Assembly (NCBI GenBank): GCA_041917855.1
Contig: JAYRWT010000044.1
Location: 21,563-85,562 of the forward strand
Direction: 5' to 3'
Source of the DNA: Patescibacteria group bacterium
GTDB lineage: Bacteria; Patescibacteriota; UBA1384; CAILIB01
DNA length: 64,000 bases
Position 1 is the first letter of the stretch. Every line of letters begins with the position of its first letter. This document shows positions 369 to 25,256 of the stretch, piece after piece. The position numbers and the translations under genes were made by a program. The notes below the pieces were generated by a model that saw only the letters and a program-made list of their open reading frames with translations, did no database searches and had not been told where the DNA came from.

Positions 369-397
369 TTGACACTATAAATAGTATAGTTAATAAT
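369..397 (+). promoter_or_regulatory. Candidate sigma70-like promoter with a short inverted repeat (CTATA-N5-TATAG) in the divergent hxlR / NTF2-like intergenic region
   Basis: TTGACA at 369-374, a 17-nt spacer, then an AT-rich TAATAAT element; possible HxlR operator. Read by eye only. Confidence 0.3.
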
Positions 398-419: not shown

Positions 420-785
420 GTGATCCACATGACCACTGAGGAAATAGTAGGGAAGTTAGTTGAATACATCAAGCGCGGTGAAAATGTTAAAGCAGAGGAA
501 GAGCTTTACGCAGATTCGGTTGTGTCGTTTGAGCAGGATGGTAGGTCTGCACACGGTAAAGAGGCAGTAATTGCTAAAACCAAGGCAGCAGTCGAGTACA
601 TTGAAGAGTTCCACTCCGTAGACGTCAGCAAGGCTTGGATTGGTGATAATAATTTTCTCCTCGAGATTACCATGGATGTTACCCCAAAGGGCGGCGAACG
701 AGTTACAATGACAGAGCTAGGCTTTTACAAGCTAACTGATGGTCTGGTAACAGAAGAGTACTTCTTTATGCAGCCAGCATTCTAG
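420..785 (+). CDS. NTF2-like / SnoaL-like small protein
   Basis: 121 aa, of the size and composition of SnoaL/NTF2-fold proteins often found next to HxlR regulators. Weak primary-sequence call. Confidence 0.45.
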   Translation: MIHMTTEEIVGKLVEYIKRGENVKAEEELYADSVVSFEQDGRSAHGKEAVIAKTKAAVEYIEEFHSVDVSKAWIGDNNFLLEITMDVTPKGGERVTMTELGFYKLTDGLVTEEYFFMQPAF

Positions 786-792: not shown

Positions 793-1356
793 ATGCGGAT
801 TGGAATTATTCTGGGTAGCGTTAGAGAAAAACGCTCAGGGGAGCGCGTGGCTCGTTGGGCAGAGCGCAAGCTTGCCGAGATACATGGGGTAGAGCCGGTA
901 CTGCTTGACCTTAAGGAGTTTGATCTGCCGTTTTATAGCGAGGCTCTGAACCCTAATGATATTGAGACTTACAGCACAGATTCTGCCAACCGCTGGGCAG
1001 CGGCTGTGGCCGGAGTAGATGGCTTTTTAATCTTGGTTGCCGAGTACAACCATGGCTACACAGGTGTACTAAAAAACGCATTAGACTACCTATATAAGGA
1101 GTGGAATGGTAAGCCAGCCGCTATGCTTAGCTACTCAAGTGGTATGATGGGCGGCGCGCGGGCTGTAGAGCAATTGCGGCCGACGCTTTCACATCTAAAA
1201 CTGGTTGCGCTGCCCGAGGTGCTACACCTTGGAAAAGTTACAGAGGTCCTAAATGAAGCAGGTGAGGTACAATCCGGGCCCTTTGATGAGATTTTAAGCA
1301 AGCAACTAGTCGAGTTAGTTAGGTGGACTAAGCTACTTAGGGAACAAAACAGCTAG
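793..1356 (+). CDS. NADPH-dependent FMN reductase (flavodoxin-like fold)
   Basis: 187 aa; MRIGIILGSVREKRSG N-terminus and LVAEYNHGYTGVLKNALDYL motif typical of the NADPH-dependent FMN reductase family. Confidence 0.8.
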   Translation: MRIGIILGSVREKRSGERVARWAERKLAEIHGVEPVLLDLKEFDLPFYSEALNPNDIETYSTDSANRWAAAVAGVDGFLILVAEYNHGYTGVLKNALDYLYKEWNGKPAAMLSYSSGMMGGARAVEQLRPTLSHLKLVALPEVLHLGKVTEVLNEAGEVQSGPFDEILSKQLVELVRWTKLLREQNS

Positions 1357-1410: not shown

Positions 1411-2916
1411 ATGTACGCACTGCTCTCACTGTTACCGGTAGCCGTTATTCTGTTTGGCCTACTATTCTTTAGGCGCCACATGCGCTTGGTTGCCCTGGCG
1501 GCTCTTGGTGTGGCAACCATACTAGCTTGGCAGATATGGCGAGTAGAGCCTGCAACCTTTAATGGCTCGGTGCTTAAAGGCATTATGACCATGATTGATA
1601 TTGGTATTGTGATCTTTGGCGCACTGGTATTTCTGGAAGTCATGCGGGCAGAGCGCGTGCTATCTTCTATTGAGCACTACCTACACAGTGTTTCGAGTGA
1701 TTCACGCATCCAAGTACTGTTACTTGCCTGGTTTTTTGGTGCTTTCCTGGAAGGCTCAGCAGGCTTTGGTATTCCTGCCTTAATTGTTGCCCCGTTGCTG
1801 GTAAATGTTGGGCTAAAGCCAGCTTTGGCAGTTATGCTTGCGCTCTTAGCAAATAGTGTTCCCGTAACCTTTGGCGCAGTAGGCACGCCAATCTTGGTTG
1901 GTTTAAGCGGCTTCCCAACCATGGCCATTGCTCAGCAGACGGCGTTCATTGCTGCGCTCTTGGGGCTCGGCTTACCCACCTTGCTATTGGCAGTCCTAAC
2001 AATCGGACTCAATCAGTCATGGAGGGAGTACTTTAGGGGCGGTTTGCCTTTTGCGCTTTGGAGCGGAGTAGCCTTTGTGGTTCCCTACTATTTTTCACTA
2101 CTGATCGGGCCAGAATTTCCCTCGCTCTTTGGAGCAATCATCGGCATGGTTTTGGCGATTATCCCACTAAAGTTTGGCTGGTTTGTACCGCCGCAACTGC
2201 ACAGAGCAAAAAACTACGAGCCTAACGAAAATCCACTCCACCTTGGCCGAACGCTCTTTCCCTACCTGCTACTAGTGGCGCTGCTGATTGGAGGTCGCCT
2301 GATTTTGCCGCAGTTTAGTATTAGTCTGCCAGGGGACTTGCTACACCAAGTGCGCCTGTTTAACCCAGGCTTACTCCTACTGTTTGTGGCCTCACTCTAC
2401 ATGCTGCGCTACCGCATGCCGCGCAGTGAAGTACTACGCTTTGCCAACGATGGCTTACTGCGTCTTGGTCGCCCGGCATTAATCATTTTTTGTACTGCCA
2501 CCATCATGCAAATTATGATGAACAGTGGTGTCAACACCTCAGGATTATCGAGTATGGTGGAGTATGGTTTTGATCGGCTGCAAACTGCCTGGCTGCCACT
2601 ATATGCGCCATTAGTGGGGGCGCTCGGTGGCTTTGTGGCGGGAAGCACAACCCTGTCAAATGTAATTTTTGGTAGCATACAGGCGTACTCTGCTTCTGTA
2701 GTTGGCTACTCCACGGTCGCAATTTTGGCCCTACAGGTAGTTGGCGCAACGGGAGGCAATATCATGTCGCTCACCAATGTAATTGCCGCGGTTTCTACGG
2801 TTGATGCCAAGCGAGAAGAAGGTCATATTATGCTTAGCCTGGTTGCGCCAGTCGCGCTCTACTTGGGGGCAGTGCTACTGATAGGTATAGCCGTAACAGG
2901 CATACTGCCTGGATAA
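1411..2916 (+). CDS. lctP: L-lactate permease (LctP family)
   Basis: 501 aa polytopic membrane protein; GFGIPALIVAPLL and overall LctP-like architecture. Confidence 0.8.
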   Translation: MYALLSLLPVAVILFGLLFFRRHMRLVALAALGVATILAWQIWRVEPATFNGSVLKGIMTMIDIGIVIFGALVFLEVMRAERVLSSIEHYLHSVSSDSRIQVLLLAWFFGAFLEGSAGFGIPALIVAPLLVNVGLKPALAVMLALLANSVPVTFGAVGTPILVGLSGFPTMAIAQQTAFIAALLGLGLPTLLLAVLTIGLNQSWREYFRGGLPFALWSGVAFVVPYYFSLLIGPEFPSLFGAIIGMVLAIIPLKFGWFVPPQLHRAKNYEPNENPLHLGRTLFPYLLLVALLIGGRLILPQFSISLPGDLLHQVRLFNPGLLLLFVASLYMLRYRMPRSEVLRFANDGLLRLGRPALIIFCTATIMQIMMNSGVNTSGLSSMVEYGFDRLQTAWLPLYAPLVGALGGFVAGSTTLSNVIFGSIQAYSASVVGYSTVAILALQVVGATGGNIMSLTNVIAAVSTVDAKREEGHIMLSLVAPVALYLGAVLLIGIAVTGILPG

Positions 2917-2985: not shown

Positions 2986-3522
2986 ATGGAGCAAAAGAAA
3001 CCAAATACAACGGTAATCACGGTCGGTGTTCTAGCTCTCGTTCTAGCTATAGCCGGGGGAGTATCACTACTAAATAAGCAAGAGACTACCGAAACAGCAG
3101 ATGCTGAATCTAATGACGGATCCAGGCAAACGACTGCGAGTAGCTCTGCGCAAAGCACGCCAACGAGCAGTGCTACAACTACAGCGGCCAGTACCGCTCC
3201 TGCAACTGCCTCTACGGCTGCAAACACATATAAAAACGGTACGTACTCGGCCAGTGGTACCTACAGTACTCCCGGAGGGGCGGAAAGCATAAACGTAACC
3301 TTAACCATAAAAGATGGTGTAGTTACAGACTCTAGCGTTAGCCAGTCAACGACTAACCGTGAGAGTCAGGAATTCTTTAACTCTTTTGCAGCGAGCTACA
3401 AAGGCAAAGTTGTTGGGCAAAAGCTAGAGAGCCTAAGCCTGAGTCGTGTCTCTGGCTCCTCACTCACCCCAAGAGGATTCAACAGCGCCCTGGCAAGCAT
3501 TAAATCAAAAGCAAAGAGCTAG
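2986..3522 (+). CDS. Membrane-anchored extracytoplasmic FMN-binding (FMN_bind) domain protein with Ser/Thr-rich linker
   Basis: Start moved to ATG 2986, which has an AAGGA Shine-Dalgarno 7 nt upstream. N-in signal anchor (KK then hydrophobic stretch), S/T/A-rich linker, and a C-terminal YKNGTYSASGTY...INVTLTIKDGVVTD...RVSGSSLT segment resembling NqrC/RnfG-type FMN_bind domains with an SGAT-like flavinylation motif (SGSS). Confidence 0.6.
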   Translation: MEQKKPNTTVITVGVLALVLAIAGGVSLLNKQETTETADAESNDGSRQTTASSSAQSTPTSSATTTAASTAPATASTAANTYKNGTYSASGTYSTPGGAESINVTLTIKDGVVTDSSVSQSTTNRESQEFFNSFAASYKGKVVGQKLESLSLSRVSGSSLTPRGFNSALASIKSKAKS

Positions 3523-3523
3523 C

Positions 3524-4387
3524 GTGCAACGTCGAGAATTTGAGGCGATCGGCACGCACTGGATCATAGACCTAGAGTTGCCGGCAAAAACCCATGCCGA
3601 GCAACTTTTTACTACGGTTGATCAGCGTATTGCTCAGTTTGATAAAGACTACTCGAGGTTTCGGTCTGACTCACTAGTGCTGCGTATGGCTGAGCAGGCT
3701 GGAAAATACCGCTTGCCTGCAGATGCACAGCCTATGTTTGATCTGTATCAAAAACTATACACAGTCAGCGCTGGCGCGCTAACGCCGCTGATTGGTCAGG
3801 TTTTGGTTGATGCAGGTTACGATGCAGCCTATAGTTTAGAGCCCAAGCAGTTGCAACGCCCTCCTACCTGGGAAGAGGTACTTATTTATAACTATCCTCA
3901 CCTAACTTTACATAAACCCGCCTTGCTTGATGTCGGCGCAGCCGGAAAAGGTTACCTTGTAGATATTGTCGCAGAAATCTTACGCGAGGCTGGCTGTAAG
4001 CAATTTGTGATTGACGCAGGAGGCGATATAGCTGTAGACGTCTTGGCTAGCACACCGCAACGTATAGGGCTAGAGCATCCCGACGATCCGAGCAAAGCAA
4101 TTGGTGTGGTGACCGTAACAAAAGGTTCCCTCTGTGGCTCGGCGGGCAATAGGCGATCCTGGGAGGGTTTTACCCACACCATTGACCCTTTCACACTTGC
4201 TTCGCCCCGACACCTCAAGGCTACGTGGGTGCGCGCGGAAAGCACCCTGCTTGCTGACGGCTTAGCTACAGCCCTCTCATTTGTAGAGCCCTACGTTTTG
4301 CAACAGCACTTTAGTTTTGAGTATGTAGTGATGCAGGCTAATGATAGTGTTATCTATTCACCTGGGTTTGGCTTGGAGCTTGCCTAG
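3524..4387 (+). CDS. apbE: ApbE-family FAD:protein FMN transferase
   Basis: GAAGKGYLVD motif and ApbE-like length. Preferred start is GTG 3524, immediately after the upstream stop; the tabulated ORF begins at GTG 3446, overlapping the previous gene. No signal peptide is visible. Confidence 0.75.
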   Translation: MQRREFEAIGTHWIIDLELPAKTHAEQLFTTVDQRIAQFDKDYSRFRSDSLVLRMAEQAGKYRLPADAQPMFDLYQKLYTVSAGALTPLIGQVLVDAGYDAAYSLEPKQLQRPPTWEEVLIYNYPHLTLHKPALLDVGAAGKGYLVDIVAEILREAGCKQFVIDAGGDIAVDVLASTPQRIGLEHPDDPSKAIGVVTVTKGSLCGSAGNRRSWEGFTHTIDPFTLASPRHLKATWVRAESTLLADGLATALSFVEPYVLQQHFSFEYVVMQANDSVIYSPGFGLELA

Positions 4388-4402
4388 CGCTATGCTGGAG
4401 CT

Positions 4403-5917
4403 ATGAAGTATATTGATCGTTTTCTCAACGCAATCACCATGTACCGGCTCTTGCTCTATGGGCTGGGCGTGCTGGTTACCGCTGCGTCTGTCCTGAGTTT
4501 ATTTGAGGATGTGCTACCCTTTACGACGCTGGCGTTGCTTGCCTCGCTCGGTGTTGCCCTGGCCGCTTGCGCGGGGAGTAACTGGGCGCTGGCTAAGCTG
4601 TATAGAGTACCCGCGAATGTAGAATCTAGCTACATTACAGCCTTAATTTTAGTGTGTATTATTACACCCACTGTTACTCTTGCTGACCTACTGACCATTG
4701 CTGCTGCTGGTGTGATCGCAATGGCTGCCAAGTACGTTCTGGCAATTAACCAAAAGCATGTCTTTAATCCAGCTGCTGTTGCTGCTGTATTGGTTGTTAT
4801 GCTTGGGTTTCACCATGTTAGTTGGTGGGTAGGAACGGGGGGAATGCTGCCACTTACCTTGGTTTTTGGCTTGCTCATAGTGCGTAAGATACGGCGTGCC
4901 GATTTATTTTTTGCTTACATTGTGCCCTCAGTCCTCATTTTGGCCTACCTCGGTATTGTGGTGGATCAGCGAACAACGGGCGAAGTGTTTGCCGAAATGT
5001 TTCGCTCTTGGCCACTGATTTTCTTTAGCACAGTTATGCTGACTGAACCGCTCACTACGCCACCAACAAGGTGGGGTAGGGTGGGGTACGGAGTTTTTGT
5101 AGCAGTAGTGATGAACAGTCGTTGGCACCTTGGTGCACTTGCTGTATCTCCGCAGTTGGCGCTAGTAGCAGGCAATCTTCTCTCATTTGCACTTAGTCCA
5201 AAACAGCGTCCAACGCTCACGCTCAAAGAAGTTGTAAAAATGGCACCAAATATTTGGGATTTTATTTTTACTCCCTCTGAGAAGGTACGATTTATTGCTG
5301 GGCAGTACGCTGAGTGGACGCTTGCACCAGATAAAGCAGACGATCGCGGTAACCGCCGTTACTTTACTATCGCATCAGCACCGCACGAGACGGATATTCA
5401 TTTAGGAGTAAAGTTCTACAGCCCATCGAGTTCTTTTAAAGAGATGCTCAGAGCCATGCAGCCAGGTGACACGCTTATGCTCGGACAAGTTTGTGGCGAC
5501 TTTGTACTGCCAACTCAGCCTCAACCGCTACTATTTTTAGCAGGAGGAATAGGGGTTACCCCCTTTAGGAGTATGCTGCACCACCTTTTGCAGCAGAAAG
5601 GCCCACTAGACGCTGTGCTTGTGTATTCAGCAGCTAGGGCGGAAGAAGTCGTATATCGCGATACTATAGCCTTAGCCCAATCACGAGGCCTGAGGGTAAT
5701 CTATGTATTGGGCACACCAGACAATGTCCCGGCTGACTGGAATGCACACCTGGGGTACATTACTCAAGAGCTACTAGCAAAATCTGTGCCAGATATTGCC
5801 AAGCGACGCGCCTATATTTCAGGTCCCAATCTATTTGTAGATGCAAGCAAGAAGGCAGTCCGTAGTCTAGGGGTACCAGCTAGCTCAATCGTCACAGATT
5901 ACTTTCCCGGGTACTAG
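4403..5917 (+). CDS. Fusion protein: RnfD/NqrB-like polytopic membrane domain plus C-terminal ferredoxin-NADP reductase-like FAD/NAD(P)-binding domain
   Basis: N-terminal SSYITALIL, HVFNPAAVAAV and TEPLTTPPT resemble RnfD/NqrB motifs (NPFNPAM, TDPVT). C-terminal RRYFTIASAP (RxY[ST] FAD motif) and LAGGIGVTPF (NAD(P)-binding GxGxxP) are FNR/NOX-like. Confidence 0.65.
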   Translation: MKYIDRFLNAITMYRLLLYGLGVLVTAASVLSLFEDVLPFTTLALLASLGVALAACAGSNWALAKLYRVPANVESSYITALILVCIITPTVTLADLLTIAAAGVIAMAAKYVLAINQKHVFNPAAVAAVLVVMLGFHHVSWWVGTGGMLPLTLVFGLLIVRKIRRADLFFAYIVPSVLILAYLGIVVDQRTTGEVFAEMFRSWPLIFFSTVMLTEPLTTPPTRWGRVGYGVFVAVVMNSRWHLGALAVSPQLALVAGNLLSFALSPKQRPTLTLKEVVKMAPNIWDFIFTPSEKVRFIAGQYAEWTLAPDKADDRGNRRYFTIASAPHETDIHLGVKFYSPSSSFKEMLRAMQPGDTLMLGQVCGDFVLPTQPQPLLFLAGGIGVTPFRSMLHHLLQQKGPLDAVLVYSAARAEEVVYRDTIALAQSRGLRVIYVLGTPDNVPADWNAHLGYITQELLAKSVPDIAKRRAYISGPNLFVDASKKAVRSLGVPASSIVTDYFPGY

Positions 5918-5919
5918 TA

Positions 5920-6954
5920 CTACTTAAATCCGTCCTTTGCGTAGGAGTAGACCGTTTCAGAGATTTTAGCGATGGTGTGCTCCACCTTGGCCACATCCGA
6001 CGCCTTACTCTTGGTCATGACACAGAGGAGGTAAGGGTGCTCACGGGTGTACACTATGCCACAGTCGTGCAGCTCTCCTTGCTCGGTGCCGCCACTTTTT
6101 TGCACAGTGCCTATGCCAAATTTGTGAGCTACTTTTACTTCACTCGGGACTCCTGCCACAAGACCGCTTTTATAGTCTGTTCGGCTAAGTAGTGCTAGCA
6201 CAGACTCAGAGTTTGCCTTATTCAGGTAAGTGGCATTAAATAGTGTGCGGAAGAAAAGTGAAAACTGGTAAGCCGTCATGTAGTCATCAATGGAGGTGAT
6301 GTTGTCGGGGTAGTGCAGTTGTAGGTCTTGGTAGGCTTGATTAAATTTTTCAATACCAAGATTTCGTAGTAGCACCTGAAAACTAATATTGTCGGAGTAG
6401 TTGATCATGTAGTCGATCAGCTGTGCATTAGTATAGCTCTTGCCAAACTGCGGTACTTCTTTGGGTACAATTGTAGTCCCAGCGTTATAATCAGTAGGAT
6501 CATCGATGGTAATAGTTTGGGTAAGGAGGCCCTGTACTGATTCAGATTCCTTATAGTACTGCAGCATAAGGGGGACCTTTTTCAGGCTAGCTGGGTAAAA
6601 CGTTTCGTCTGGATCAATGCTCATTTCACGACGATTAATAAGGTCACGCAGATAGACCGAAACCTTTGTGATATCACCCCGCGCTTTTGCCTCCGCAATA
6701 GTTTTTTCCAGTGCAGTTTTTACGGCAATCATTTCTTTATAATCATCCCCAGCCGGGTTTGTATCGCAGGTTAGGAGCGGTCTAATGTATGTGTAACCCG
6801 ATAGTCTCAAACAACCAGAAGTAGGGGGAACAACTGTTGTGTTAGGTTTAGAGTACCAGCCTACCCCAAAACCAATAGCCAACAGCGTGGTAGCGCCCAG
6901 TAAAACAGCTGTAGTTTTCCAGGTATGTGAATCAGATTTACGTGTGTTGCTCAT
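5920..6954 (-). CDS. Secreted/anchored serine hydrolase of the beta-lactamase/transpeptidase fold
   Basis: N-terminal membrane anchor; SxxK (ASLKK), SDN (YSDN) and a KFG (KTG-like) motif in the right order. Confidence 0.55.
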   Translation of the reverse strand: MSNTRKSDSHTWKTTAVLLGATTLLAIGFGVGWYSKPNTTVVPPTSGCLRLSGYTYIRPLLTCDTNPAGDDYKEMIAVKTALEKTIAEAKARGDITKVSVYLRDLINRREMSIDPDETFYPASLKKVPLMLQYYKESESVQGLLTQTITIDDPTDYNAGTTIVPKEVPQFGKSYTNAQLIDYMINYSDNISFQVLLRNLGIEKFNQAYQDLQLHYPDNITSIDDYMTAYQFSLFFRTLFNATYLNKANSESVLALLSRTDYKSGLVAGVPSEVKVAHKFGIGTVQKSGGTEQGELHDCGIVYTREHPYLLCVMTKSKASDVAKVEHTIAKISETVYSYAKDGFK

Positions 6955-6989
6955 GGCTACATACTAACAAATTCTTCAGTCGCGTGTAG

Positions 6990-9425
6990 CTAGCGAATTA
7001 TTGTGCTTTCGCTGGCAAAAAATCGATGCTTGGCAATTTCAACAACACCTAGGTAGAGGGCAACTATACTGGCAATAGTAAGAAGGGCTGGGAAAGGTAG
7101 GGGGGTAAATCCAAGAAGGGAGCCAATAGGGAGCACGGTAATTAACCAGCTAACTCCTACTGCAGCAGATGCTCCTATAAGCAGGGTCAGACTAGGGCTG
7201 CTCTGTAGGAAGGGGATCTTTTTCGTGCGAATAATGTATACGACCAGCGTTTGGGTTGCTAACGACTCCAAAAACCATCCAGTTTGAAAGCTGCCATTTA
7301 GTAGGTTAAAGCCCCAATACAGCACACCAAAGGTCATAAAATCGAATACTGAACTGATTGGACCAAATACTAGCATAAAGCGCTTAATCTCTTGTATGTG
7401 CAGGCGGCGCGGCTTGAGAATCTCTTCTTCGTCTACATTGTCGCTGGGCAGGGCAAACTGCGAGGCCTCGTAGAGTAGATTATTTAATAGAACTTGTGTT
7501 GGTAGCATGGGGAGAAAGGGAAGGATGACGGAAGCGCCGGCCATGGAAAATACATTGCCGTAGTTAGAGGCAAGTACCATGCGCAGGTATTTGAGGGTAT
7601 TCACAAATGTTTTACGTCCCTCGCGTACGCCCCCTACGAGATCCTGCAAGCTTTTGTGCAGCAAAATAAGGTCGGCTGAATCTTTGGCAATATCGGTGGC
7701 GTTGTTAACAGAGATCCCCACATCTGCGGCGCGTAGTGAAGGGGCGTCGTTAATACCATCACCCATGTACCCAACTACGTTACCTGCCTTTTGTAGGGTT
7801 TGGATAATCCTGAGCTTCTGCTCTGGATTAACTCTTGCAAAAATACTTATCTCTCGTACAGCCTTCTCTAGTTGCTGGGGTGAGAGCGTATCTAGTTGGT
7901 CACCAGTAACTACACCTGTAACGGGTAGCGAGATATCTTGAGCAATACGTTGAGTAACGAGCTCGTTATCTCCAGTAATAATCTTGATTGCAATACCTAA
8001 GCGCTGCATTTCAGCCAAGGTGGGTGCAGCGGTTAGCTTGGCAGGATCAAGAAAGGCGACAAACCCCTGAAAACTCATGTCCTTTTCTTCAGTTGTTTCG
8101 TAACTTGCTTTACGCTTTACCACCCGAGAAGCTATGGCGAGCACCCTAAACCCGTCTCGGCTCAGCTGCTGGTAGGTTTTTTTAGCAACGGCTCGGGTGG
8201 CGGCATCGTCAAACTCACTACATACTCGCATTACTCCTTCAGGCGAGCCCTTGGCAATTAATAAAATCTTTCCTGCGTGCTCAACAACAACTGACTCTCG
8301 TCGTCGTTCAAAGTCAAAGGGCAGCTCATCAATCTTTTTGTACGATTTACTGTCCAAATGCCTAAAGTCGCGGATGGCATCATCGAGGGGATTCTTAAAG
8401 CCGGTAGTGAGTACACTATTTAAATAGGCATAGAGTAGTGTTGCATCGCAGGTTTTCCCAGCTCCATCTACGTATTTAACTAGTGAAATGTGATCTTCAG
8501 TTAATGTGCCTGTTTTATCTGTGCAGAGCACATTCATGCTACCGAAATTTTGTAGCGAGGAAAGTTTCTTGACGATTACGCCATGCTTGGCCATGGCTAA
8601 TGAACCCTTAGTTAGGTTAAGGGTTATGATCATGGGTAGTAGCTCGGGGGTGATACCTACGGCAAGTGCAATGGCAAAGAGTAGAGAGGTTAGCGCACTA
8701 CCTTTCAGAATGGTATTAACCGCAAAAACAACTATCACCAAAATGAGGGCTACTCGCAGTATTAGAAAGCTAAAGTCACGTATCTCACGATCAAATTCAG
8801 TGAGTCCAACCTTAGTATTAAGCGCAACAACCACCTTACTAAACTGCGTGGCCGCCCCTGTTTTTGTCACCTGCATAATTCCCTCACCACTGGATATGCT
8901 GCTACCCATGTAGAGTTCGCTGCCAACATTTTTTGCTTGTGGATAGGCCTCGCCGGTGAGTGAGGACTCGTTGCTAAATAAGTGTGTGGCGGCCACCACG
9001 TTGCCATCGGCGGGAACAATGTCTCCAGCTGAAAGAATCACAATGTCGCCAGGAACAAGCGCGCTCACTGGAATATTGCTCTGCTCTGCATCGCGTATAA
9101 CGGTGACGGTAATCCTTACACGCTTCTTTAATTCCTGCGCGGCTTTATCTGACTTATAGCTATTTACTGCGTCAAAAATGCTGCTCGCCAAAACTATGAG
9201 AATAATGATGGCTGAGCTTAGGGTTTCGCCAAAGTAGGCGGAGAGAGCTGCTGCTACTAGCAAAATTATGCCGAGCGGGTTCTTAAAGGAAGTTACTAAA
9301 AAAGAAAGAAGTGTATGATTCTTACGAATCTCAATTTCATTTGGTCCGTACTGGAGCGTGAGGCGAGTAATATCCTTACTGCTCAATCCAGTTTTGAACG
9401 GCGGTGTATGTAGTGGTGCCGGCAT
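6990..9425 (-). CDS. P-type cation-transporting ATPase, MgtA-like (Mg2+ importer type)
   Basis: 811 aa; DKTGTLT phosphorylation motif, TGDN, and the MGDGINDAPSLRAADVGISV hinge motif. The N-terminal region resembles MgtA. Confidence 0.85.
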   Translation of the reverse strand: MPAPLHTPPFKTGLSSKDITRLTLQYGPNEIEIRKNHTLLSFLVTSFKNPLGIILLVAAALSAYFGETLSSAIIILIVLASSIFDAVNSYKSDKAAQELKKRVRITVTVIRDAEQSNIPVSALVPGDIVILSAGDIVPADGNVVAATHLFSNESSLTGEAYPQAKNVGSELYMGSSISSGEGIMQVTKTGAATQFSKVVVALNTKVGLTEFDREIRDFSFLILRVALILVIVVFAVNTILKGSALTSLLFAIALAVGITPELLPMIITLNLTKGSLAMAKHGVIVKKLSSLQNFGSMNVLCTDKTGTLTEDHISLVKYVDGAGKTCDATLLYAYLNSVLTTGFKNPLDDAIRDFRHLDSKSYKKIDELPFDFERRRESVVVEHAGKILLIAKGSPEGVMRVCSEFDDAATRAVAKKTYQQLSRDGFRVLAIASRVVKRKASYETTEEKDMSFQGFVAFLDPAKLTAAPTLAEMQRLGIAIKIITGDNELVTQRIAQDISLPVTGVVTGDQLDTLSPQQLEKAVREISIFARVNPEQKLRIIQTLQKAGNVVGYMGDGINDAPSLRAADVGISVNNATDIAKDSADLILLHKSLQDLVGGVREGRKTFVNTLKYLRMVLASNYGNVFSMAGASVILPFLPMLPTQVLLNNLLYEASQFALPSDNVDEEEILKPRRLHIQEIKRFMLVFGPISSVFDFMTFGVLYWGFNLLNGSFQTGWFLESLATQTLVVYIIRTKKIPFLQSSPSLTLLIGASAAVGVSWLITVLPIGSLLGFTPLPFPALLTIASIVALYLGVVEIAKHRFFASESTIIR

Positions 9426-9766: not shown

Positions 9767-10495
9767 CTACAAGCTCCGCTCTAGCTTAGAGATTGGGTCG
9801 TACCAACCATGCTCTAGGGCAAAGGTCTGGATCTTTTTGTCGTAGCCAAATAGTATTGCAAGTCCAATCAAAATAAAGAGCAACCCAATGCCTCTGCGGA
9901 CTATGCCCTGGGGGTTAGCTAGCGAGCGTAGCCGGCTGCTAATCTTTTTACCGAGCAGCGCAATAGCAAGTAGCGCTATGCCTAGGCCTAGAGCATAGGC
10001 AGTCAGGTGTACAAACCCCTCTGCGAATGATCGGGGCAAGATAATGGCCACTATTAAAGCATAAGTCGGGCTGCAGCTATTGAATACAGGTCCAAGTGCT
10101 GCGCCAATTAAGAAATTTCCGAGTACTCCTTGTTTTTTAGCACTTTGGTTGAGTAGTGCATCTGACTGTTTTTGTAAGCCTGCCCTTATACTAATTGCGT
10201 CCCAAAGCTGAGGAAGCACTAGGGTCATGCCAAATAATACAAGGATAGATGCAGAGATTGCTTGCCAGAATAAATCAGGGATATTTAGTAGGGCCGTAGA
10301 TGCCTTGAGCAGCAAGGTGAACACAATCACCGAAGCAATTAGGCCGGCAATAATTTGATAGGGAGCAGCTTTAGAGCTTGCCTGTTGCTCCGTACGCACA
10401 ATACTGCCACCTAAAATAACCGGCAGTAGCGGCAGTACACAGGGAGCGGCCACGGTAAGGAAGCCAGCGAAAAAAGAACCAAGCAGCTCAATCAT
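9767..10495 (-). CDS. ccdA: CcdA/DsbD-family transmembrane thiol:disulfide electron transporter
   Basis: 242 aa polytopic membrane protein; conserved Cys in TM1 (AAPCVLPLLPV) and a CcdA-like architecture. Confidence 0.8.
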   Translation of the reverse strand: MIELLGSFFAGFLTVAAPCVLPLLPVILGGSIVRTEQQASSKAAPYQIIAGLIASVIVFTLLLKASTALLNIPDLFWQAISASILVLFGMTLVLPQLWDAISIRAGLQKQSDALLNQSAKKQGVLGNFLIGAALGPVFNSCSPTYALIVAIILPRSFAEGFVHLTAYALGLGIALLAIALLGKKISSRLRSLANPQGIVRRGIGLLFILIGLAILFGYDKKIQTFALEHGWYDPISKLERSL

Positions 10496-10996
10496 TTACA
10501 GAATATTCTTGATCAGTGCTGTTAGGCTTGGGTCACTCGAAGCGACAAAACTTGCCTCAAGCTTGCCATCGTCACCAACGCGAACCAAGGTGGTTTGTAC
10601 CTTTACGCCATAGGTTTTGCGCAGCGCTTGGTTAGAATCATAGTCAACTTTAATAATCGTTACACCCTGAGGAATTTTACCTGATCGAATACTCGCGTCG
10701 AGTGCGCGGCAGTCTGGACACCACGAGGCATGAAAGAAAAGAATCTTCTTGCCAGACGTTTTCTCAATAATGCCCGGCTCATAGGTAGTATAGGTTCCTG
10801 TGCTCGCAGTGTTGGCTTGCGCCGAAGCAGTGACACTAGCGACCGAAGCACTTGCTGTAGGAGTAGGAGTGCTCTCAGCTACTTGATTGCTATTCATAGT
10901 GCTCTGGCGCATATAGGCATATACGCCACCTGCAACAAGTACCAACGCACCAACCAGGATAAAAACCATCTGAGGAGTTTGGGATTTTTGCTTCAT
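10496..10996 (-). CDS. Membrane-anchored thioredoxin-like protein (TlpA/ResA type)
   Basis: Signal anchor, S/T-rich linker, WCPDC active-site motif. Confidence 0.8.
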   Translation of the reverse strand: MKQKSQTPQMVFILVGALVLVAGGVYAYMRQSTMNSNQVAESTPTPTASASVASVTASAQANTASTGTYTTYEPGIIEKTSGKKILFFHASWCPDCRALDASIRSGKIPQGVTIIKVDYDSNQALRKTYGVKVQTTLVRVGDDGKLEASFVASSDPSLTALIKNIL

Positions 10997-11059
10997 GGGG
11001 ATGTGTAATGGATTAGTCGGTACTTTTGTATGCGCCTACTATAGTTCATCAGATAGTCT

Positions 11060-12052
11060 GTGTACACTAAATCTATGATGCAGGTGACAAATAAAAACTT
11101 TTGGGATCCAAGTGGCATCGGTTTTAACGAGGCTGTTTGGGTAGAAGCTTATGCAGGCTTTGCGGAAACATACGCAAAATCAACAAATTTAATCCAGCTG
11201 CGCCGTAAGAGAAGAATCCTACTAACTATTGGTTGGGTGGGTATGATGGTTATGCCTGCGTTGGTTGGCTACGCCACGTATGCCCTAAAGCTATCACTAG
11301 ATGGTAATATTTTGTTTTTATTGTGTATTAGCTGGATGCCGTACTTGGCCATGTACGGTAATCTGAAAAAGATGCAGCACGATATCGCCAAGCTGCAAAT
11401 AGCAAAGGAAAAAGGATGGACCTACTGGCCAAGTGAAGACCGTGATCGCTATGGTCGATTATCTACCCTGTACCCTGCGGTATTTAATGTTGGCACTAGC
11501 TCCCAATACTTTTCAGATGAGTTTTGGGGAGAGCAGCCGGGGAAACATTTGACTACACCTTTTTGGGTTGCCGACTTTACCTACACCGTGGGTAGCGGTA
11601 AAAACGAAACAGTGATTCACGAAACTGCATTTGCGGTGCACTTAGCGCGTCCTGTGCAAACAGAATTAACAATCCTACCGGAAAACTTTGCTACGCGCGT
11701 GGCTAATGTTTTCACCCGTTCAGATATACAACTTGAATCTGCCGAGTTTAACCAAAAATTTCACCTAAGCTATGCGGCGGACAATGACGTACAAAAGAAA
11801 CAAAAAATATTTCAAGTTCTTAATCCGCCGGCGATGGCAACACTGTTAGATATTAACGATCACATTGGAAGGTTCAGGCTTACATTTAAGGATGATGTAA
11901 TTGCTGGCAGCTTCAGTAATCAAATTTTTAGACCAAAGTATTCAAACTTTTTTAAGAGCACGGCGGTTGACCCGCGTGACTTGCAAAACCTGAATGATTT
12001 TTTAACAAAGATCACCACGCTTGCTACTCAGCTCTCCTTTGATTTGGATTAA
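11060..12052 (+). CDS. Hypothetical membrane-associated protein
   Basis: 330 aa; internal hydrophobic helices (LLTIGWVGMMVMPALVGYATYAL, ILFLLCISWMPYLAMYG); no recognisable catalytic motifs. Confidence 0.4.
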   Translation: MYTKSMMQVTNKNFWDPSGIGFNEAVWVEAYAGFAETYAKSTNLIQLRRKRRILLTIGWVGMMVMPALVGYATYALKLSLDGNILFLLCISWMPYLAMYGNLKKMQHDIAKLQIAKEKGWTYWPSEDRDRYGRLSTLYPAVFNVGTSSQYFSDEFWGEQPGKHLTTPFWVADFTYTVGSGKNETVIHETAFAVHLARPVQTELTILPENFATRVANVFTRSDIQLESAEFNQKFHLSYAADNDVQKKQKIFQVLNPPAMATLLDINDHIGRFRLTFKDDVIAGSFSNQIFRPKYSNFFKSTAVDPRDLQNLNDFLTKITTLATQLSFDLD

Positions 12053-12686: not shown

Positions 12687-14222
12687 GTGGAGATGCATAT
12701 GTTTTCCAAACTATTTACCAACCTACGCCATGCTCTCTACCGTTCGCGCAAGCCTCTCTCTCCGGAGGAGCAGCAGGCAAGTGAAGACAGGGTGTGGCAA
12801 GGCCTCGCTACGAGGTTAAACAACCAATCAATGACTCAGAATGTCACTACGGCCAAGTCAGGTCGCAACAGCCTTTCATTTTTGCTGCCCGCGCTAGCCT
12901 TTGTGCTCGTGCTTGGGGTGGTCGCAACTATGGTGTATCGCCCTCAGCAAAACAAGGAGAAAAATCAGGTAGCAAGCAACGACGTAACAAGTGTCAAAGT
13001 AAACCCGGATATTGTTAACGATGTAGGTGTTGTCGCTCGTAAGCAAGGAGCTACGTCAAATGGAGTGGTTGGCTACGTACCTAAGCCAAAAAAAGCTGCC
13101 CAAGCCAGTCTTTTTGCTAGCACCGCATACGCTGCAGAAGACGAGTACACACCAGTTTTGTTCTACACCAAGAGCAATGCAGGCACACAGTCCCAATTAT
13201 TCTCTTATGATATTACATCAGGTACAGAGAAAGCTCTTACCTCTGCTGACGATTACGCTACAACACCTGTATTTAGTTCAAAAGGTCAGAAGCTGGCATA
13301 CAATATTTTGACGGGTCCAAACTCTAGTATGTTCCGCCCATGTCAGATTGCTATTCAGGACCACACCACAGGTAAGGTGATCGCCACTATCCAAAAGGAT
13401 GATACCCGCTGCCTTATTCCCGTTAGCTGGTCTGCAGACGGTAATTACTTAGTCATTACTGATGACTTTAAGGGTCGTCCACTAGATATCAGTGAGGACT
13501 CGATTATCCCTAAGACCGACACTCATGTACGTGTGTATAACGTGGCTACAAACGTACTTAGCGATTACGTTGAGCCAACAAATCAAGGTGATTGCTTTTC
13601 ATCTGGCGGGTGGAAGGATGATGTAAACTTTTATATCCATTGCTCTACATACGGTGTAAAAGTAGGTAGCGAAAAGCGAAGCGTGTTTAGCATCAACGTC
13701 GACACAAAAGTCGCAACAGAATTTACAGCGCCAACTCAATCGTTCTATGGATTTCAGCGTGTGGGTAATGACGACTTTTACATGGCAAGTATTCCACCAA
13801 AGAATCCTAAGCCAAATAGTAGTTACAGTCCGTATCGTATTGTGCGGCGCTCAGCCACAGACACGGAGCCATTTGTCTACCCGTTTAGTCAAATGACCTC
13901 CAACTTCATGGTGAGTAAAACAAGTAATGGTTCGGCAGGATATGTTGTCGCTGGTCAAACCACCGCAGATTGGTTCGCAGATGAAGATCCTGATGCCAAA
14001 ACCAGTCCGAGTTGGTTGGCCAAGGGTGGTGTGGTCATGTTTGATGTTAAAACAGGTAAGCCGACTCACTTTAATACCGCAAAAGGTTATGTTGAGTTAG
14101 TTGGTTGGTATGGTGATTATACTCACATTATTTACGTGAATAGTGAAGATAGCGGTGCACGTCAGTATCGTCTGCTCAACCTGCAGGATGGCAAGGATAG
14201 CCTAATCAAGAGTGTTGAGTAA
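12687..14222 (+). CDS. Putative anti-sigma factor: cytoplasmic N-terminus, one TM helix, extracytoplasmic TolB/WD40-like beta-propeller domain
   Basis: Directly downstream of the ECF sigma; TM at about aa 62-85; the large extracytoplasmic part has propeller-like repeats (FYTKSNAGTQSQLFSYDITSG, SWSADGNYLVITDD). Confidence 0.5.
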   Translation: MEMHMFSKLFTNLRHALYRSRKPLSPEEQQASEDRVWQGLATRLNNQSMTQNVTTAKSGRNSLSFLLPALAFVLVLGVVATMVYRPQQNKEKNQVASNDVTSVKVNPDIVNDVGVVARKQGATSNGVVGYVPKPKKAAQASLFASTAYAAEDEYTPVLFYTKSNAGTQSQLFSYDITSGTEKALTSADDYATTPVFSSKGQKLAYNILTGPNSSMFRPCQIAIQDHTTGKVIATIQKDDTRCLIPVSWSADGNYLVITDDFKGRPLDISEDSIIPKTDTHVRVYNVATNVLSDYVEPTNQGDCFSSGGWKDDVNFYIHCSTYGVKVGSEKRSVFSINVDTKVATEFTAPTQSFYGFQRVGNDDFYMASIPPKNPKPNSSYSPYRIVRRSATDTEPFVYPFSQMTSNFMVSKTSNGSAGYVVAGQTTADWFADEDPDAKTSPSWLAKGGVVMFDVKTGKPTHFNTAKGYVELVGWYGDYTHIIYVNSEDSGARQYRLLNLQDGKDSLIKSVE

Positions 14223-21580: not shown

Positions 21581-21754
21581 CTACGCTTCTCGAGGGATTC
21601 GCGTACTGCAGCCAGTTGACGTTCCTTCTGTGCCTGCCCGCTCTGCCATGATGGTATCCACCATCTTTGCCAGTTTCGGGTGGTTGGTCTTGATTGCTTC
21701 GGGAGTCATGCTACCGAGCAACTTTTCAACTTGCTTTCTTTTATTTTGCGCCAT
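21581..21754 (-). CDS. Small ORF (57 aa) overlapping the 3' end of the upstream gene; possibly the N-terminal fragment of a frameshifted gene
   Basis: ATG overlaps the C-terminal codons of the 567-aa gene; a GAGGAG Shine-Dalgarno lies 5 nt upstream. The reading continues in another frame as the 21202-21540 ORF (EKRSAVTDPLGT...). Confidence 0.25.
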   Translation of the reverse strand: MAQNKRKQVEKLLGSMTPEAIKTNHPKLAKMVDTIMAERAGTEGTSTGCSTRIPREA

Positions 21755-23444
21755 TGGATCTCCTCAAAACAGGATGCAGCATTGTTGGCTTCAGTGAGCC
21801 AAAATGCTTTCGGGCATTTTCCTGTGCGTTTCTGACTGATAGCAAGCTACTTGCATCAGGTGATTGAGTTATACCAGAATTACCAAGATCACACCAGAGT
21901 GCCTGGCTGGTGAACATGCACAGTAACTCGGGGGATAACCGAGCGCGAATAGCTGTAGTCGCCGCATGTGCAGCCGCCATTCCCAAGTATGCCATTGAAT
22001 CGGCACAAATCTCTAAACAGGCATGGCCAGGGCTATTCTGGTACTGAATCTCAGATACCTCATCAGCCACAAAACGCAACAGCCTTGTGAGATCGGTGCT
22101 TCGCTTCTTAGGGCTCCTAGCAAGCTGTTCAACAATCGAAGCGCCTAATGACGAATCGATCATGTAGCGTGAAAGGAAAAACTCGAGCTGCGAATCATCT
22201 TGGGCGACGCGGGTTGCTCTCTTGGCAATAGCCGCAAACAAGTTATCCTGATGAGTTGCTGATATCCCATGCGTCTCAGAAATATCCCACCGGCGCATCC
22301 TTCTGTGGAAGTTTCTCCTTACTCGATGGTAGAGTGCTTCCGATCCAAAAGATCTGGTGTCAGTCATAACCGGTACGCAGAGGCCTGGATGGCAGCTACG
22401 CACAGACTCCAGATTGTCAGTCATTGCGGTTAAGCAATGACCGCTATCGAGATATCGGGCAACTCCCTGAAATGGATCCAGGCATGCCCAAATATTGCGC
22501 TCTCGATCAAGCTCAACTAGCACGCAGTAGTGGAGCATGCGTTGGAATGTATCTTCCGCTAGTGCCTCACCCCACTTTGTGCGCATTCCATCAATTTCTT
22601 TTGTTGAAAAAATTGCTGAAAAATTACACATGTAGGTGTACATACTCTGACGGGCGCCTACCAAGATTGCTCGATCACATTCTTGTTCTCCGGCAACCAC
22701 CAACGCAAGGTGATGGCGAAAGCCAAGCTTGGCTAGTACCGCAAGGCAGATCACGGCAAATCCGAGGCAATTTGGCATTTGAAGTGCAGAAAACCGGTAG
22801 GGGTTAACACGATCAAATGAATCAGGCTTATGAATACTTTCAAAGCCATGTCTTCTGAGTTTTGTGTAGATGTCCCAGCATTCTTTAGGAACTCCTTGAA
22901 GGAATTTTTCATTCAGACACTCATACAATCCCTCTAACATCCCATACAGGTATGAGAACAAGTCTTCAGGGCTGAGGGCTTGTTGCGCGGCTGTGGGTAA
23001 AGAGGAGATACGCTGTCTTTGCTGATCCTTCTTAAGGGTTCTGACTGCAAGGTTGCTGATTGATAAGAGCGATCCCACCAAGCAGTTTCCTAAATGTCTG
23101 TAGCAAGTTACCAACGATGTGGTTTCGGAGTTGGATAATATCTGTGCTCCTGTGTAGGTTTGGTGAGTAATCTCACCACACAAGCGCCATAGTTCAACTG
23201 GTGATGGAAGAGGTTTGATGTGACGACGATTACCAGTGAGCAGTCCAAGTCGAACCGCTTCTCTGGTGAGAATGTGTGTAGGTTCTAGTGGTTGCATTGT
23301 TAAGTTCCGATGTGTCGGCACAATACCAGGTTTGTAACAATTTGTCACGTAAGGAGGGGGCGACTGTACGATTAACGTAATAGAGGTCTCGTATATCATT
23401 GACAAATTACTGCTGTATGGTACATTTGCGCCGTTCTTTAACAA
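21741..23444 (-). CDS. Transglutaminase-like superfamily cysteine protease domain protein (Cys-rich, no signal peptide)
   Basis: Cys/His/Asp triad context: NCLGFAVICLAVLAKLGF (catalytic Cys), LHYCVLVEL (His), IWACLDPFQG (Asp in a W..DP motif). Start uncertain (TTG 23444, ATG 23399 or ATG 23297). Confidence 0.55.
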   Translation of the reverse strand: MLKNGANVPYSSNLSMIYETSITLIVQSPPPYVTNCYKPGIVPTHRNLTMQPLEPTHILTREAVRLGLLTGNRRHIKPLPSPVELWRLCGEITHQTYTGAQILSNSETTSLVTCYRHLGNCLVGSLLSISNLAVRTLKKDQQRQRISSLPTAAQQALSPEDLFSYLYGMLEGLYECLNEKFLQGVPKECWDIYTKLRRHGFESIHKPDSFDRVNPYRFSALQMPNCLGFAVICLAVLAKLGFRHHLALVVAGEQECDRAILVGARQSMYTYMCNFSAIFSTKEIDGMRTKWGEALAEDTFQRMLHYCVLVELDRERNIWACLDPFQGVARYLDSGHCLTAMTDNLESVRSCHPGLCVPVMTDTRSFGSEALYHRVRRNFHRRMRRWDISETHGISATHQDNLFAAIAKRATRVAQDDSQLEFFLSRYMIDSSLGASIVEQLARSPKKRSTDLTRLLRFVADEVSEIQYQNSPGHACLEICADSMAYLGMAAAHAATTAIRARLSPELLCMFTSQALWCDLGNSGITQSPDASSLLSVRNAQENARKHFGSLKPTMLHPVLRRSNGAK

Positions 23445-24387: not shown

Positions 24388-24461
24388 TGGCAGGGGCACT
24401 AGGAATCGAACCTAGAACAAGGGTTTTGGAGACCCGTGTGATACCACTTCACCATACCCCT
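24388..24461 (-). tRNA. tRNA-Trp (anticodon CCA), 3' CCA encoded
   Basis: Manual cloverleaf: acceptor AGGGGTA/TGCCCCT, anticodon loop CTCCAAA, T-arm CTAGG-TTCGATT-CCTAG. Confidence 0.8.
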
Positions 24462-24587
24462 ACAACGTTCGAAGTATACCAAATCATTTCCACTCTTTCC
24501 AGGTCTGTCGCGCTAAAACAAATCTACCACTAGATAAGAAATCAGGGCCAATCCTGAATAGAAAAGGCCCTGTGCTGACGAGTGTTG

Positions 24588-24914
24588 CTAAACCTCAGCT
24601 GGCTGGGGCTCGGCTTTGAGTAGTGTTCTGATTTGTTGCAAGACCACTGGGTAATTTCTCCCTGTGATTGTGTGCGTTGAGCCGTCTGACTCTAGAACCA
24701 CCTTTGCCTCAATTGATCGAACATACTGGCTGTCGGCAAGTCCGTCGCACCAGAAGCGGTTTTGCCCATCCTCTTGCAAGAAAACTCCCTGGTTTTTGTA
24801 GTGCGCGACCCCTGCTGGGGTGAGTTGGCTACGATAGTCCACATGCTGGACTCCCTGTATCTTTTCCATAGCAGAAAATTTATACCAGATTTCTACAACT
24901 AAGCCAAGCAACAT
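24588..24914 (-). CDS. Hypothetical protein (108 aa)
   Basis: ORF between tRNA-Trp and rpmG; no motifs recognised. Confidence 0.3.
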   Translation of the reverse strand: MLLGLVVEIWYKFSAMEKIQGVQHVDYRSQLTPAGVAHYKNQGVFLQEDGQNRFWCDGLADSQYVRSIEAKVVLESDGSTHTITGRNYPVVLQQIRTLLKAEPQPAEV

Positions 24915-24964
24915 ACCAAAAAGACCGACGTAGGCCGGTCGTAATGGCTGCAGGGCAAGGGAGG

Positions 24965-25135
24965 CTACTTTACCTCTTTGAACCAGACGTACTTTTTGAC
25001 GTCAGGAGCAAAACGCTTCAGGCGTAGCTTCTCTTTGTTGTTTACCTTGTTGCGCTCAGTTTGGAAACGGTGCTTAGACTCTTTCTTGTCTTCGGCAGCC
25101 ATCCAAACCCAGCTGCGATTGCCTTTCTTGGCCAT
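24965..25135 (-). CDS. rpmG: 50S ribosomal protein L33 (zinc-less form)
   Basis: 56 aa, MAKKGNRSWVWMAAEDKKESKHRFQTERNKVNNKEKLRLKRFAPDVKKYVWFKEVK. Matches the L33 pattern KNKxN..(D/E)KLxLKK(Y/F)xP...KHV..KExK. Under 60 aa, so absent from the ORF table. Confidence 0.75.
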   Translation of the reverse strand: MAKKGNRSWVWMAAEDKKESKHRFQTERNKVNNKEKLRLKRFAPDVKKYVWFKEVK

Positions 25136-25170
25136 GGTCGGAGGGTGGTGAATAAAATATGGTTGCTAGT

Positions 25171-25256
25171 TGGTGGGCAGACTAGGATTCGAACCTAGGT
25201 AGGCGTATGCCAAGAGATTTACAGTCTCCCCTCGTTGACCGCTTGAGTATCTGCCC
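25171..25256 (-). tRNA. tRNA-Tyr (anticodon GTA), class II with long variable arm, CCA encoded
   Basis: Acceptor GGGCAGA/TCTGCCC, anticodon loop CTGTAAA, T-arm CTAGG-TTCGAAT-CCTAG. Confidence 0.85.

Follow-up and report, generated by a model that had tools for sequence, protein, structure and literature searches.

A predicted NQR/RNF-like flavin electron-transfer cassette of a divergent subtype in a CPR genome, encoding an ApbE without an export signal

The closest described counterparts of the locus studied here are the NQR/RNF-like systems, whose architecture was defined by Meheust et al. 2021 (eLife, PMC8238504) and modelled by Huang et al. 2024 (PMC10979944). Such a system comprises an anchored, NqrC/RnfG-like FMN_bind protein, an ApbE and an NqrB/RnfD-like::PF00175 fusion that has lost the RnfD/NqrB flavinylation site, and it is known from CPR, Actinobacteria and Chloroflexota (Ktedonobacteria). 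The 2021 definition calls for an NqrB/RnfD-like domain (PF03116) and an NqrF-like PF00175 domain in one polypeptide that lies inside a gene cluster associated with flavinylation, having ApbE and/or an FMN_bind gene within five genes, and is accompanied by a proposed direction of electron flow (PMC8238504). In the AlphaFold-multimer model of the Ktedonobacter complex, the FMN site of the NqrC-like subunit sits at the vacant flavin pocket (PMC10979944). The appeal of the system is that it would provide a two-protein, all-flavin route for NAD(P)H electrons across the membrane, and that it is widespread in CPR bacteria, which otherwise lack electron-transport chains. We found no experimental work on any member in the literature searched.

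We analysed a 64-kb stretch of Patescibacteria DNA (the window) in which three consecutive genes encode the proteins referred to below as P1, ApbE and P3 (Table 1). As the first-pass annotation had described them, all three ORFs are co-directional and closely packed; ORFs and gene calls agree, and with gaps of 1 nt between P1 and ApbE and 15 nt between ApbE and P3, positions 2986-5917 form a tight operon. For the ApbE start, gene callers and homologue N-termini prefer GTG 3524 over GTG 3446, and every peptide motif cited in that annotation was found in the translations. ApbE and FMN_bind genes lie within five genes of P3, as in the gene clusters of the 2021 survey. Judged by domain content and gene order, the cassette is probably a CPR member of the bioinformatically defined NQR/RNF-like group of flavinylation-associated trans-membrane electron-transfer systems.

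Table 1. Features of the three-gene cassette, in positions of the window
Feature	Position	Strand	Description
P1	2986..3522	+	178 aa, membrane-anchored, FMN_bind-like (NqrC/RnfG-like); ORF and gene call
P1 regions			TM anchor, residues 5-31 (predicted N-in); S/T/A/P-rich linker, ~32-80; C-terminal alpha+beta domain, 81-178
Predicted flavinylation motif of P1, S153-R-V-S-G-S-S159-L-T161	3442..3468	+	aligns to VSGATYT of 8p2a
ApbE	3524..4387	+	287 aa from GTG 3524, FAD:protein FMN transferase family
GAAGKGYLVD motif of ApbE	3935..3964	+	found in translation; Arthrobacter counterpart GAAGKGQLAD
P3	4403..5917	+	504 aa, RnfD/NqrB-like membrane domain fused to FNR-type domain
P3 N-terminal polytopic domain	4403..5197	+	residues 1-265, trimmed RnfD/NqrB fold without flavinylation loop
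TEPLTTPP motif of P3	5042..5065	+	equivalent to RnfD/NqrB 'TDP' motif; aligned to RsxD ILTDPVTAS
FNR-type FAD/NAD(P)H domain at the C-terminus of P3	5210..5917	+	residues ~270-504
R319-Y-F-T322 FAD motif of P3	5354-5377	+	
GGIGVTPF motif of P3	5543-5566	+	G382-I-G384-V-T-P387
P3 C-terminal marks			SGP, residues 473-475; terminal aromatic Y504

The reading of P3 as an RnfD/NqrB-like membrane domain joined to an FNR-type domain held for both halves. The N-terminal domain is homologous to NqrB/RnfD (PF03116), as judged from its alignment to E. coli RsxD and its fold; its match to Pfam NQR2_RnfD_RnfE (E 1.4e-4, 21.8 bits) lies under the gathering score of 27.7. E215, in the TEP motif, is invariant in relatives. 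The first-pass annotation had placed FSTV where canonical proteins carry SGAT, which proved to be a misalignment: FSTV (residues 208-211) immediately precedes the TEP motif, and the whole SGAT-bearing loop, corresponding to the ~75-residue loop with GISQAT in E. coli RsxD, is missing from P3 and all of its relatives. That the RnfD/NqrB flavinylation site is gone was already remarked upon by Huang et al. 2024 (PMC10979944). In the C-terminal half, PF00175 (NAD_binding_1) matches residues 378-483 with an E of 9.4e-13, and NqrF is the top PDB sequence match of P3 (E 7e-21). The FNR-type motif set (R-x-[YF]-[ST], G-x-G-x-x-P and a C-terminal aromatic residue) can be read directly from the translation, with R319-Y-F321-T322, G382-I-G384-V-T-P387 and Y504 invariant or near-invariant in 30 relatives.

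The assignment of P1 as an FMN_bind protein stood for the family and its relatives but not for the sequence taken singly, which falls below the Pfam threshold. Scanned directly, P1 gave no FMN_bind match in Pfam at E <= 0.1 and none in NCBIfam, so that family profiles were required. The P1-family profile matches the FMN-binding domain of PDB 8p2a (E 0.0018), and PF04205 is matched by 15 of 36 P1 relatives (best E 1.4e-5); FMN_bind scores are E 5e-4 in a relative of the window's own subtype, type A (L012), and E 8.9e-10 in one of type B (L019). Through this profile and these relatives P1 shows homology to FMN_bind (PF04205; NqrC/RnfG/PplA-like). The AF2 model has pLDDT >90 in the C-terminal domain, and its Foldseek matches in the PDB are weak (8p2a, E 0.05; RnfG, E 0.55), with nothing at E <= 0.001 and FMN_bind structures weakly present among IscU-like folds; when the P1 family was compared by hhalign with E. 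coli RsxG alone, the match did not reach significance. FMN is predicted to be attached at Ser159 (codon 3460-3462), which is invariant among the 36 relatives and has an equivalent Ser in 21 of 21 type-A loci. Against the canonical motif D-x-x-[ST]-G-A-[ST] (PMC12052999), the P1 motif S-R-V-S-G-S-S differs twice, with D replaced by S and A by S; according to the same review, the effect of changing D to A is minor and Ser is accepted. Hydropathy gives P1 a single TM segment, and the net charges of its flanks (+1 on the N-terminal side, -4 on the C-terminal side), together with the S/T-rich linker that follows, argue for an N-in, C-out topology with the C-terminal domain predicted to lie outside the cell.

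ApbE of the window matches Pfam ApbE (PF02424) with an E of 1e-33 over profile positions 2-247 of 266 and is 43% identical to an Arthrobacter ApbE over its full length; homology across most of the profile makes it a member of the ApbE family, with FMN transfer itself a prediction. An N-terminal lipoprotein or secretion signal is typical of ApbE, though not strictly defining. By a hydropathy test, neither a signal peptide nor a lipobox nor a TM segment is present in the window protein (its top 19-residue Kyte-Doolittle window is 1.22): just ~9 residues precede the domain, and homologues start at the same 'FEAIGTxW' strand. The first-pass annotation had raised this as a caveat, and it turned out to be true family-wide, as the same test found no hydrophobic ApbE N-terminus or export signal among 73 related loci. 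With the substrate domain predicted to lie outside, flavinylation of that domain lacks an explanation. Export of P1-type proteins by the Tat route was considered and rejected as a general answer, because the (R/K)R-x-hydrophobic-hydrophobic pattern occurs in 8 of 69 FMN_bind N-termini, mostly as a trivial 'MKRF', and P1 of the window lacks it. None of the cassettes examined, whether from CPR, Chloroflexota or Actinobacteria, has an ApbE with a leader. This may mean either that these cassettes mature unlike all characterised extracytoplasmic flavinylation, FMN being added in the cytoplasm and the domain then moved across, or that the assumed topology is wrong; in both cases the module would be a self-sufficient, NAD(P)H-driven outward electron outlet for CPR bacteria, possibly to the host cell surface. 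We regard this proposal as doubtful, with a modest chance of being right; if true, ultrasmall and supposedly purely fermentative CPR bacteria would gain an electron outlet. In the available portions of the NQR/RNF-like literature, the mechanistic problem posed by the family-wide lack of an ApbE export signal is not addressed.

Na+-NQR (NqrA-F) and Rnf (RnfA-E,G) are multi-subunit complexes, whereas the window has two subunits only, without NqrD/E, RnfA/E or Fe-S subunits, and fuses the NqrB-like and NqrF-like parts with the covalent-FMN loop deleted; a tblastn search of the window with the E. coli proteins RsxA, B, C, E and G returned noise only (E ~1 or above, best 0.98), and canonical Rnf/Nqr partners are absent from the conserved neighbours of related loci. 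Electron flow is semicircular in Na+-NQR and Rnf but predicted to be one-way and outward here. Extracellular electron transfer (EET) in Listeria offers a parallel, in that the ApbE-type FmnB flavinylates the extracytoplasmic FMN_bind protein PplA and electrons from NAD(P)H pass onward to outside acceptors. However, that system (Ndh2, EetA/B, DmkA/B, PplA, FmnA/B) crosses the membrane via the quinone pool and its FmnB is a lipoprotein, whereas the window would use an RnfD-like flavoprotein domain, has a leaderless ApbE, and lacks Ndh2, quinone and Eet components beside the cassette. No Listeria-type EET gene set was found among the neighbours in the window or related loci, and P1 matches the NCBIfam PplA model at chance level (E 0.006, 15.7 bits versus a cut-off of 325). 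NOX/FRE enzymes such as SpNOX have a six-helix di-haem domain, in contrast to the unrelated RnfD/NqrB fold of P3 with its predicted flavins, and the window system differs further in needing a separate flavinylated partner and ApbE.

The best-supported functional reading, already proposed at first pass and in agreement with what is in print, runs from NAD(P)H through FAD and the RnfD/NqrB-like domain to an outward-facing, covalently flavinylated P1. The cytoplasmic FNR-type domain of P3, recognised from its homology and motifs, would oxidise NAD(P)H and reduce its own FAD; electrons would then cross the membrane via the RnfD/NqrB-like domain, after the model of Huang et al. 2024, where P3 probably holds a non-covalent flavin in place of the one lost with the loop. 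From there they would reach FMN bound covalently to Ser159 of the anchored P1, which would dock on P3 and pass them to an extracytoplasmic acceptor, with ApbE, encoded between the two, predicted to install this FMN from FAD. The signal-less ApbE of the window and the 73 related loci would fit a chain that faces the cytoplasm throughout, in which P1 is flavinylated and kept inside and the complex, instead of exporting electrons, works at the membrane as an NAD(P)H:acceptor reductase (of a membrane quinone or soluble flavin, for example); cytoplasmic ApbEs with cytoplasmic substrates are known, as for the Klebsiella fumarate reductase (PMC12052999). The charges flanking the P1 anchor and the long S/T/A/P-rich linker fit N-in, C-out instead, NqrC and RnfG homologues are extracytoplasmic, and the published multimer model has the subunit outside (PMC10979944), so that we consider this arrangement decidedly unlikely. 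The NqrB-like transfer might also be coupled to Na+ or H+ translocation and serve the CPR membrane potential, which would be compatible with the outward route. P3 does have the membrane fold of RnfD/NqrB from ion-pumping complexes, and the invariant E215 is a membrane-embedded acid equivalent to the D of TDP, but neither the window nor the related loci have the other Nqr/Rnf membrane subunits (NqrD/E, RnfA/E) or the Fe-S centre that belongs to them, and the published view is one of simple unidirectional transfer (PMC8238504, PMC10979944); we consider ion pumping quite improbable.

Gene neighbourhoods bear on two further readings. Of 78 related loci, 71 have ApbE immediately upstream of the fusion and 71 have an FMN_bind gene, with all three genes kept in 71, in keeping with the co-occurrence in relatives that had been named beforehand as a check. 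No other neighbour occurs in more than 12 of the 78 loci, the commonest being ABC transporters and two-component systems (each in 12 or fewer), and there is no conserved electron-acceptor gene beside the cassette in this set. The cassette could serve reductive iron or flavin assimilation, as an extracellular ferric or flavin reductase akin to FRE/NOX-type TM::FNR enzymes rather than a respiratory-like sink; with no iron-related gene adjoining the window cassette and no conserved one across the 78 loci, we think this unlikely. The first-pass annotation had also floated a connection with two genes just upstream, for an NADPH:FMN reductase and a lactate permease, which together with the cassette would make a lactate-linked redox unit. 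These genes are co-directional with the cassette, and the only strong promoter-like site lies at 369-397, but promoter and terminator counts did not exceed those of shuffled controls, so the scan is uninformative on operon limits. Moreover, the two genes adjoin the cassette only in the near-identical contigs L001 and L002, and are absent from the closest relatives (55% identity) and from 78 other loci; we rejected the link as one whose neighbours are not conserved, and a lactate-linked unit is highly improbable.

The first-pass annotation had further read the fusion as collapsing the Nqr/Rnf path into one protein. As a claim of something unrecognised, this failed on the annotation's own refuting condition: the architecture is common and already in print as a predicted system. 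We found the RnfD-FNR fusion in at least 596 species genomes of Patescibacteria, Chloroflexota and Actinobacteria, and the published census of NQR/RNF-like systems counts 127 genomes. The 2021 and 2024 genome surveys had already described cassettes of this kind, and the window holds one more, somewhat divergent member with a predicted function; since the importance of the system is already in the literature, the locus adds little in that respect. The divergence is one of subtype. Two subtypes exist, in which flavinylation motif, ApbE length and P3 clade go together, so that by their sequences the three genes co-evolve as a self-contained module. The published systems have D-x-x-S-G-A-T and an ApbE of ~247 aa, whereas the window, by its sequence features a divergent type-A cassette, has S-x-x-S-G-S-S, an ApbE of ~290 aa and an FMN_bind domain below the Pfam threshold. 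Censuses that demanded a Pfam-level FMN_bind match or an ApbE signal could have missed type A, a possible part of the reason why flavinylation is reported to be under-represented in CPR bacteria. Type A is shared with Actinobacteria such as Arthrobacter, where sp. ISL-72 (GCA_018613755.1) has the cassette at 5001-7955 of locus L088, and its presence in a cultured Arthrobacter makes the predicted function directly testable.

The three plus-strand genes at 2986–5917 are co-directional and encode P1, a membrane-anchored FMN_bind-like protein, an ApbE FMN transferase and P3, an RnfD/NqrB-like::FNR fusion. The first-pass annotation had described this arrangement, and every peptide motif that it quoted was found in the translations. 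The ApbE start given in the table is used by public gene calls on identical contigs, and homologue N-termini likewise begin at the 'FEAIGTxW' strand. Identical copies of the cassette proteins are confined to one NCBI contig and a few SRA-derived assemblies. Taken together, our results indicate that the locus adds one more member, from a divergent subtype, to a common system known from predictions.

Features of the cassette and of the surrounding window
Feature	Coordinates	Strand	Remarks
HxlR regulator	within 48–2916	−	
Sigma70-like promoter match	369–397		strong, 11/12
SnoaL_5 protein	420–785		
NADPH-dependent FMN reductase	793–1356		
Lactate permease	1411–2916		
P1	2986–3522	+	ORF, 178 aa
ApbE	most likely start GTG 3524	+	one base past P1 stop; start from public gene calls and homologue N-termini
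P3	4403–5917	+	ORF, 504 aa; 15 nt past ApbE
Gene after P3	5920–6954	−	convergent to cassette
P-type cation ATPase	6990–9425	−	811 aa; after gene 5920–6954
CcdA/DsbD_TM protein	9767–10495	−	adjoins thioredoxin gene
Thioredoxin gene	about 10496–11000		beside CcdA/DsbD_TM
Four tRNA genes	24391–25890	−	clustered
PilB-like ATPase with MshEN domain	27841–30240	+	type IV pilus
Second ORF amid type IV pilus genes	30253–31323	+	
PilC-like T2SSF platform protein	31458–32663	+	type IV pilus

P3 matches Pfam NAD_binding_1 (FNR-type, E 9.4e-13), and its C-terminus matches the flavohaemoprotein, NqrF and Fre reductase modules of NCBIfam. The Pfam match of its N-terminal domain to NQR2_RnfD_RnfE is sub-threshold (E 1.4e-4, 21.8 bits versus a gathering score of 27.7) and spans the last third of the domain only, but the N-domain profile finds RnfD in the PDB (E 3.6e-4) and hhalign matches the N-domain family to E. 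coli RsxD at E 4.3e-6, upholding the proposed RnfD/NqrB assignment. The AF2 model, built with a family alignment of 30 sequences, has a mean pLDDT of 90 and a pTM of 0.83. FSTV (P3 residues 208–211) had been taken as the counterpart of the flavinylated SGAT; it is not, as the residues that directly follow it, TEPLTTPP, align with the RnfD/NqrB 'TDP'. The flavinylated motif of RsxD, GISQATPL, lies in a ~75-residue periplasmic loop running from the FNPA helix to the next TM helix. When added to the P3 family alignment RsxD is collinear across the whole domain; unlike RsxD, however, P3 and its relatives in this alignment lack the loop.

For P1 the FMN_bind call was borne out at the level of the family rather than of the single protein: a Pfam scan of P1 itself did not match FMN_bind, but the alignment of 36 family members matches 8p2a, a solved FMN-binding domain (E 0.0018), pairing VSGSSLT of P1 with VSGATYT, and 15 of the 36 reach PF04205. 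AF2 models the C-terminal domain with pLDDT above 90 as three strands plus two helices; Ser159, the predicted FMN attachment site, directly precedes the last helix. Foldseek weakly supports FMN_bind. These family matches and the model identify P1 as a divergent FMN_bind protein. A single N-terminal TM anchor (residues 5–31) is followed by a long S/T/A/P-rich linker, and the flanking charges (+1 and −4) favour an N-in, C-out orientation.

The fusion is neither unrecognised nor rare. In their passages on flavinylation gene clusters, Meheust et al. 2021 define 'NQR/RNF-like systems' by a protein that joins an NqrB/RnfD-homologous N-terminal membrane domain to a C-terminal PF00175 domain, count 127 such clusters, most of them actinobacterial or from the candidate phyla radiation, and propose unidirectional electron transfer from NAD(P)H to extracytosolic FMN (PMC8238504). 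The corresponding passages of Huang et al. 2024 model the Ktedonobacter complex with AlphaFold-Multimer, note that the Thr flavinylated in NqrB/RnfD lacks conservation, and suggest that the FMN of the NqrC-like subunit samples a non-covalent flavin site in the NqrB-like subunit (PMC10979944). These passages already contain the first-pass idea, its flavinylation-site caveat included, and the mechanism it proposed, which remains the best supported, is the published prediction. Our literature search found no experimental characterisation of an NQR/RNF-like system.

As to frequency, a word-indexed protein search gave thousands of matches, the best 120 all full-length (~500 aa), and, with one genome scanned per species, relatives were found in at least 596 genomes, those listed comprising many Patescibacteria lineages, Chloroflexota (e.g. 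Dictyobacter aurantiacus and Ktedonospora formicarum) and a few others. When only the membrane domain was used in an exhaustive HMM search, 623 clusters (50% identity) were found at E ≤ 1e-30; among the best 150, most measure 480–515 aa, and the fusion is therefore the dominant architecture. Of the 78 loci whose P3 gene is complete, 71 have ApbE directly upstream on the same strand and 71 have FMN_bind upstream of ApbE, again on the same strand, so that the three genes co-occur in related genomes as anticipated. The next commonest neighbour, an ABC transporter, is found in 12 of the 78, followed by two-component regulators; the cassette is therefore a self-contained three-gene module, and no acceptor gene is conserved beside the cassette in these loci. 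Cassette relatives are labelled Saccharimonadales, Saccharibacteria or Patescibacteria.

The loci fall into two subtypes. Type B, the majority and including Ktedonobacteria, has a canonical FMN_bind protein ending in N-V-[D/N]-x-[V/I]-[S/T]-G-A-[T/S] (one, from L019, passes Pfam at 8.9e-10) and an ApbE of ~247 aa, versus ~290 aa in type A, to which the window belongs and which was seen in about 20 loci. In type A the motif reads x-L-[S/T/D]-[K/R]-V-S-G-S-S-L-T, and 21/21 have the acceptor Ser; compared with the canonical D-x-x-[S/T]-G-A-[S/T] it lacks the Asp and has Ser in place of Ala. Replacing the Asp by Ala is reported to matter little, and Ser to be tolerated as the acceptor (PMC12052999). 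In a neighbour-joining tree of P3 one clade holds 46 type B and one type A sequence, with type A otherwise outside; the three genes therefore co-evolve. Type A clusters may have been under-counted in the published census. The type A cassette is also present in Arthrobacter sp. ISL-72 (GCA_018613755.1, L088 5001–7955; P3 37% and ApbE 43% identical to the window over full length), and in Nakamurella sp. UYEF19 (L089 5001–7212) a type A FMN_bind gene adjoins the fusion. Actinobacteria are the usual hosts of Saccharibacteria, and the presence of type A in cultured members would fit horizontal transfer of the cassette between a host and its epibiont. Arthrobacter is genetically tractable, so the subtype can be tested there; this and the leaderless ApbE are the remaining points of interest.

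The missing export signal of ApbE (Pfam E 1e-33), flagged in the first-pass annotation, proved to be family-wide as judged by hydropathy rather than SignalP. Only about nine residues precede the domain, and no hydrophobic segment was found anywhere in the protein (highest 19-residue Kyte-Doolittle window 1.22). The 73 ApbE-position ORFs of related loci reach at most 1.81 (median 1.16), as against about 2–3.8 for FMN_bind anchors. Known cytoplasmic ApbEs act on cytoplasmic substrates (PMC12052999), and the passages of PMC8238504 and PMC10979944 on these systems do not take up the leaderless ApbE. A general Tat route was considered and rejected, the Tat-like pattern being limited to 8 of 69 FMN_bind N-termini and missing from P1. 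FMN_bind N-termini were examined in the Chloroflexota type B loci L014, L015, L033, L041, L053, L055, L075 and L078; in several, the N-region is long and basic and ends in R-[RK]-F-[FLA]-[LV]-S (e.g. GIRRFFLSGF in L055), an ending reminiscent in sequence of a twin-arginine signal, though not family-wide.

No RnfA/B/C/E/G homologues were found within the 64 kb. The tentatively linked NADPH:FMN reductase and lactate permease accompany the cassette only in near-identical contigs and are absent from its closest relatives (55% identity); the 48–2916 stretch appears to form a unit of its own, for redox functions or electrophile stress. The CcdA/DsbD_TM and thioredoxin genes represent thiol-based export of reducing power ~4 kb from the flavin-based cassette. 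Three large minus-strand ORFs (11060–12052, 12687–14222 and 21741–23444; 330, 511 and 567 aa) had no Pfam match at E ≤ 1e-5. The window also encodes IleRS, Mfd and TopA, whose best relatives are 70% identical, the named ones being Patescibacteria; the DNA stems from a bacterium of a sparsely sampled CPR lineage. Type IV pilus machinery, typical for epibiotic CPR bacteria, spans 27841–32663 (+).
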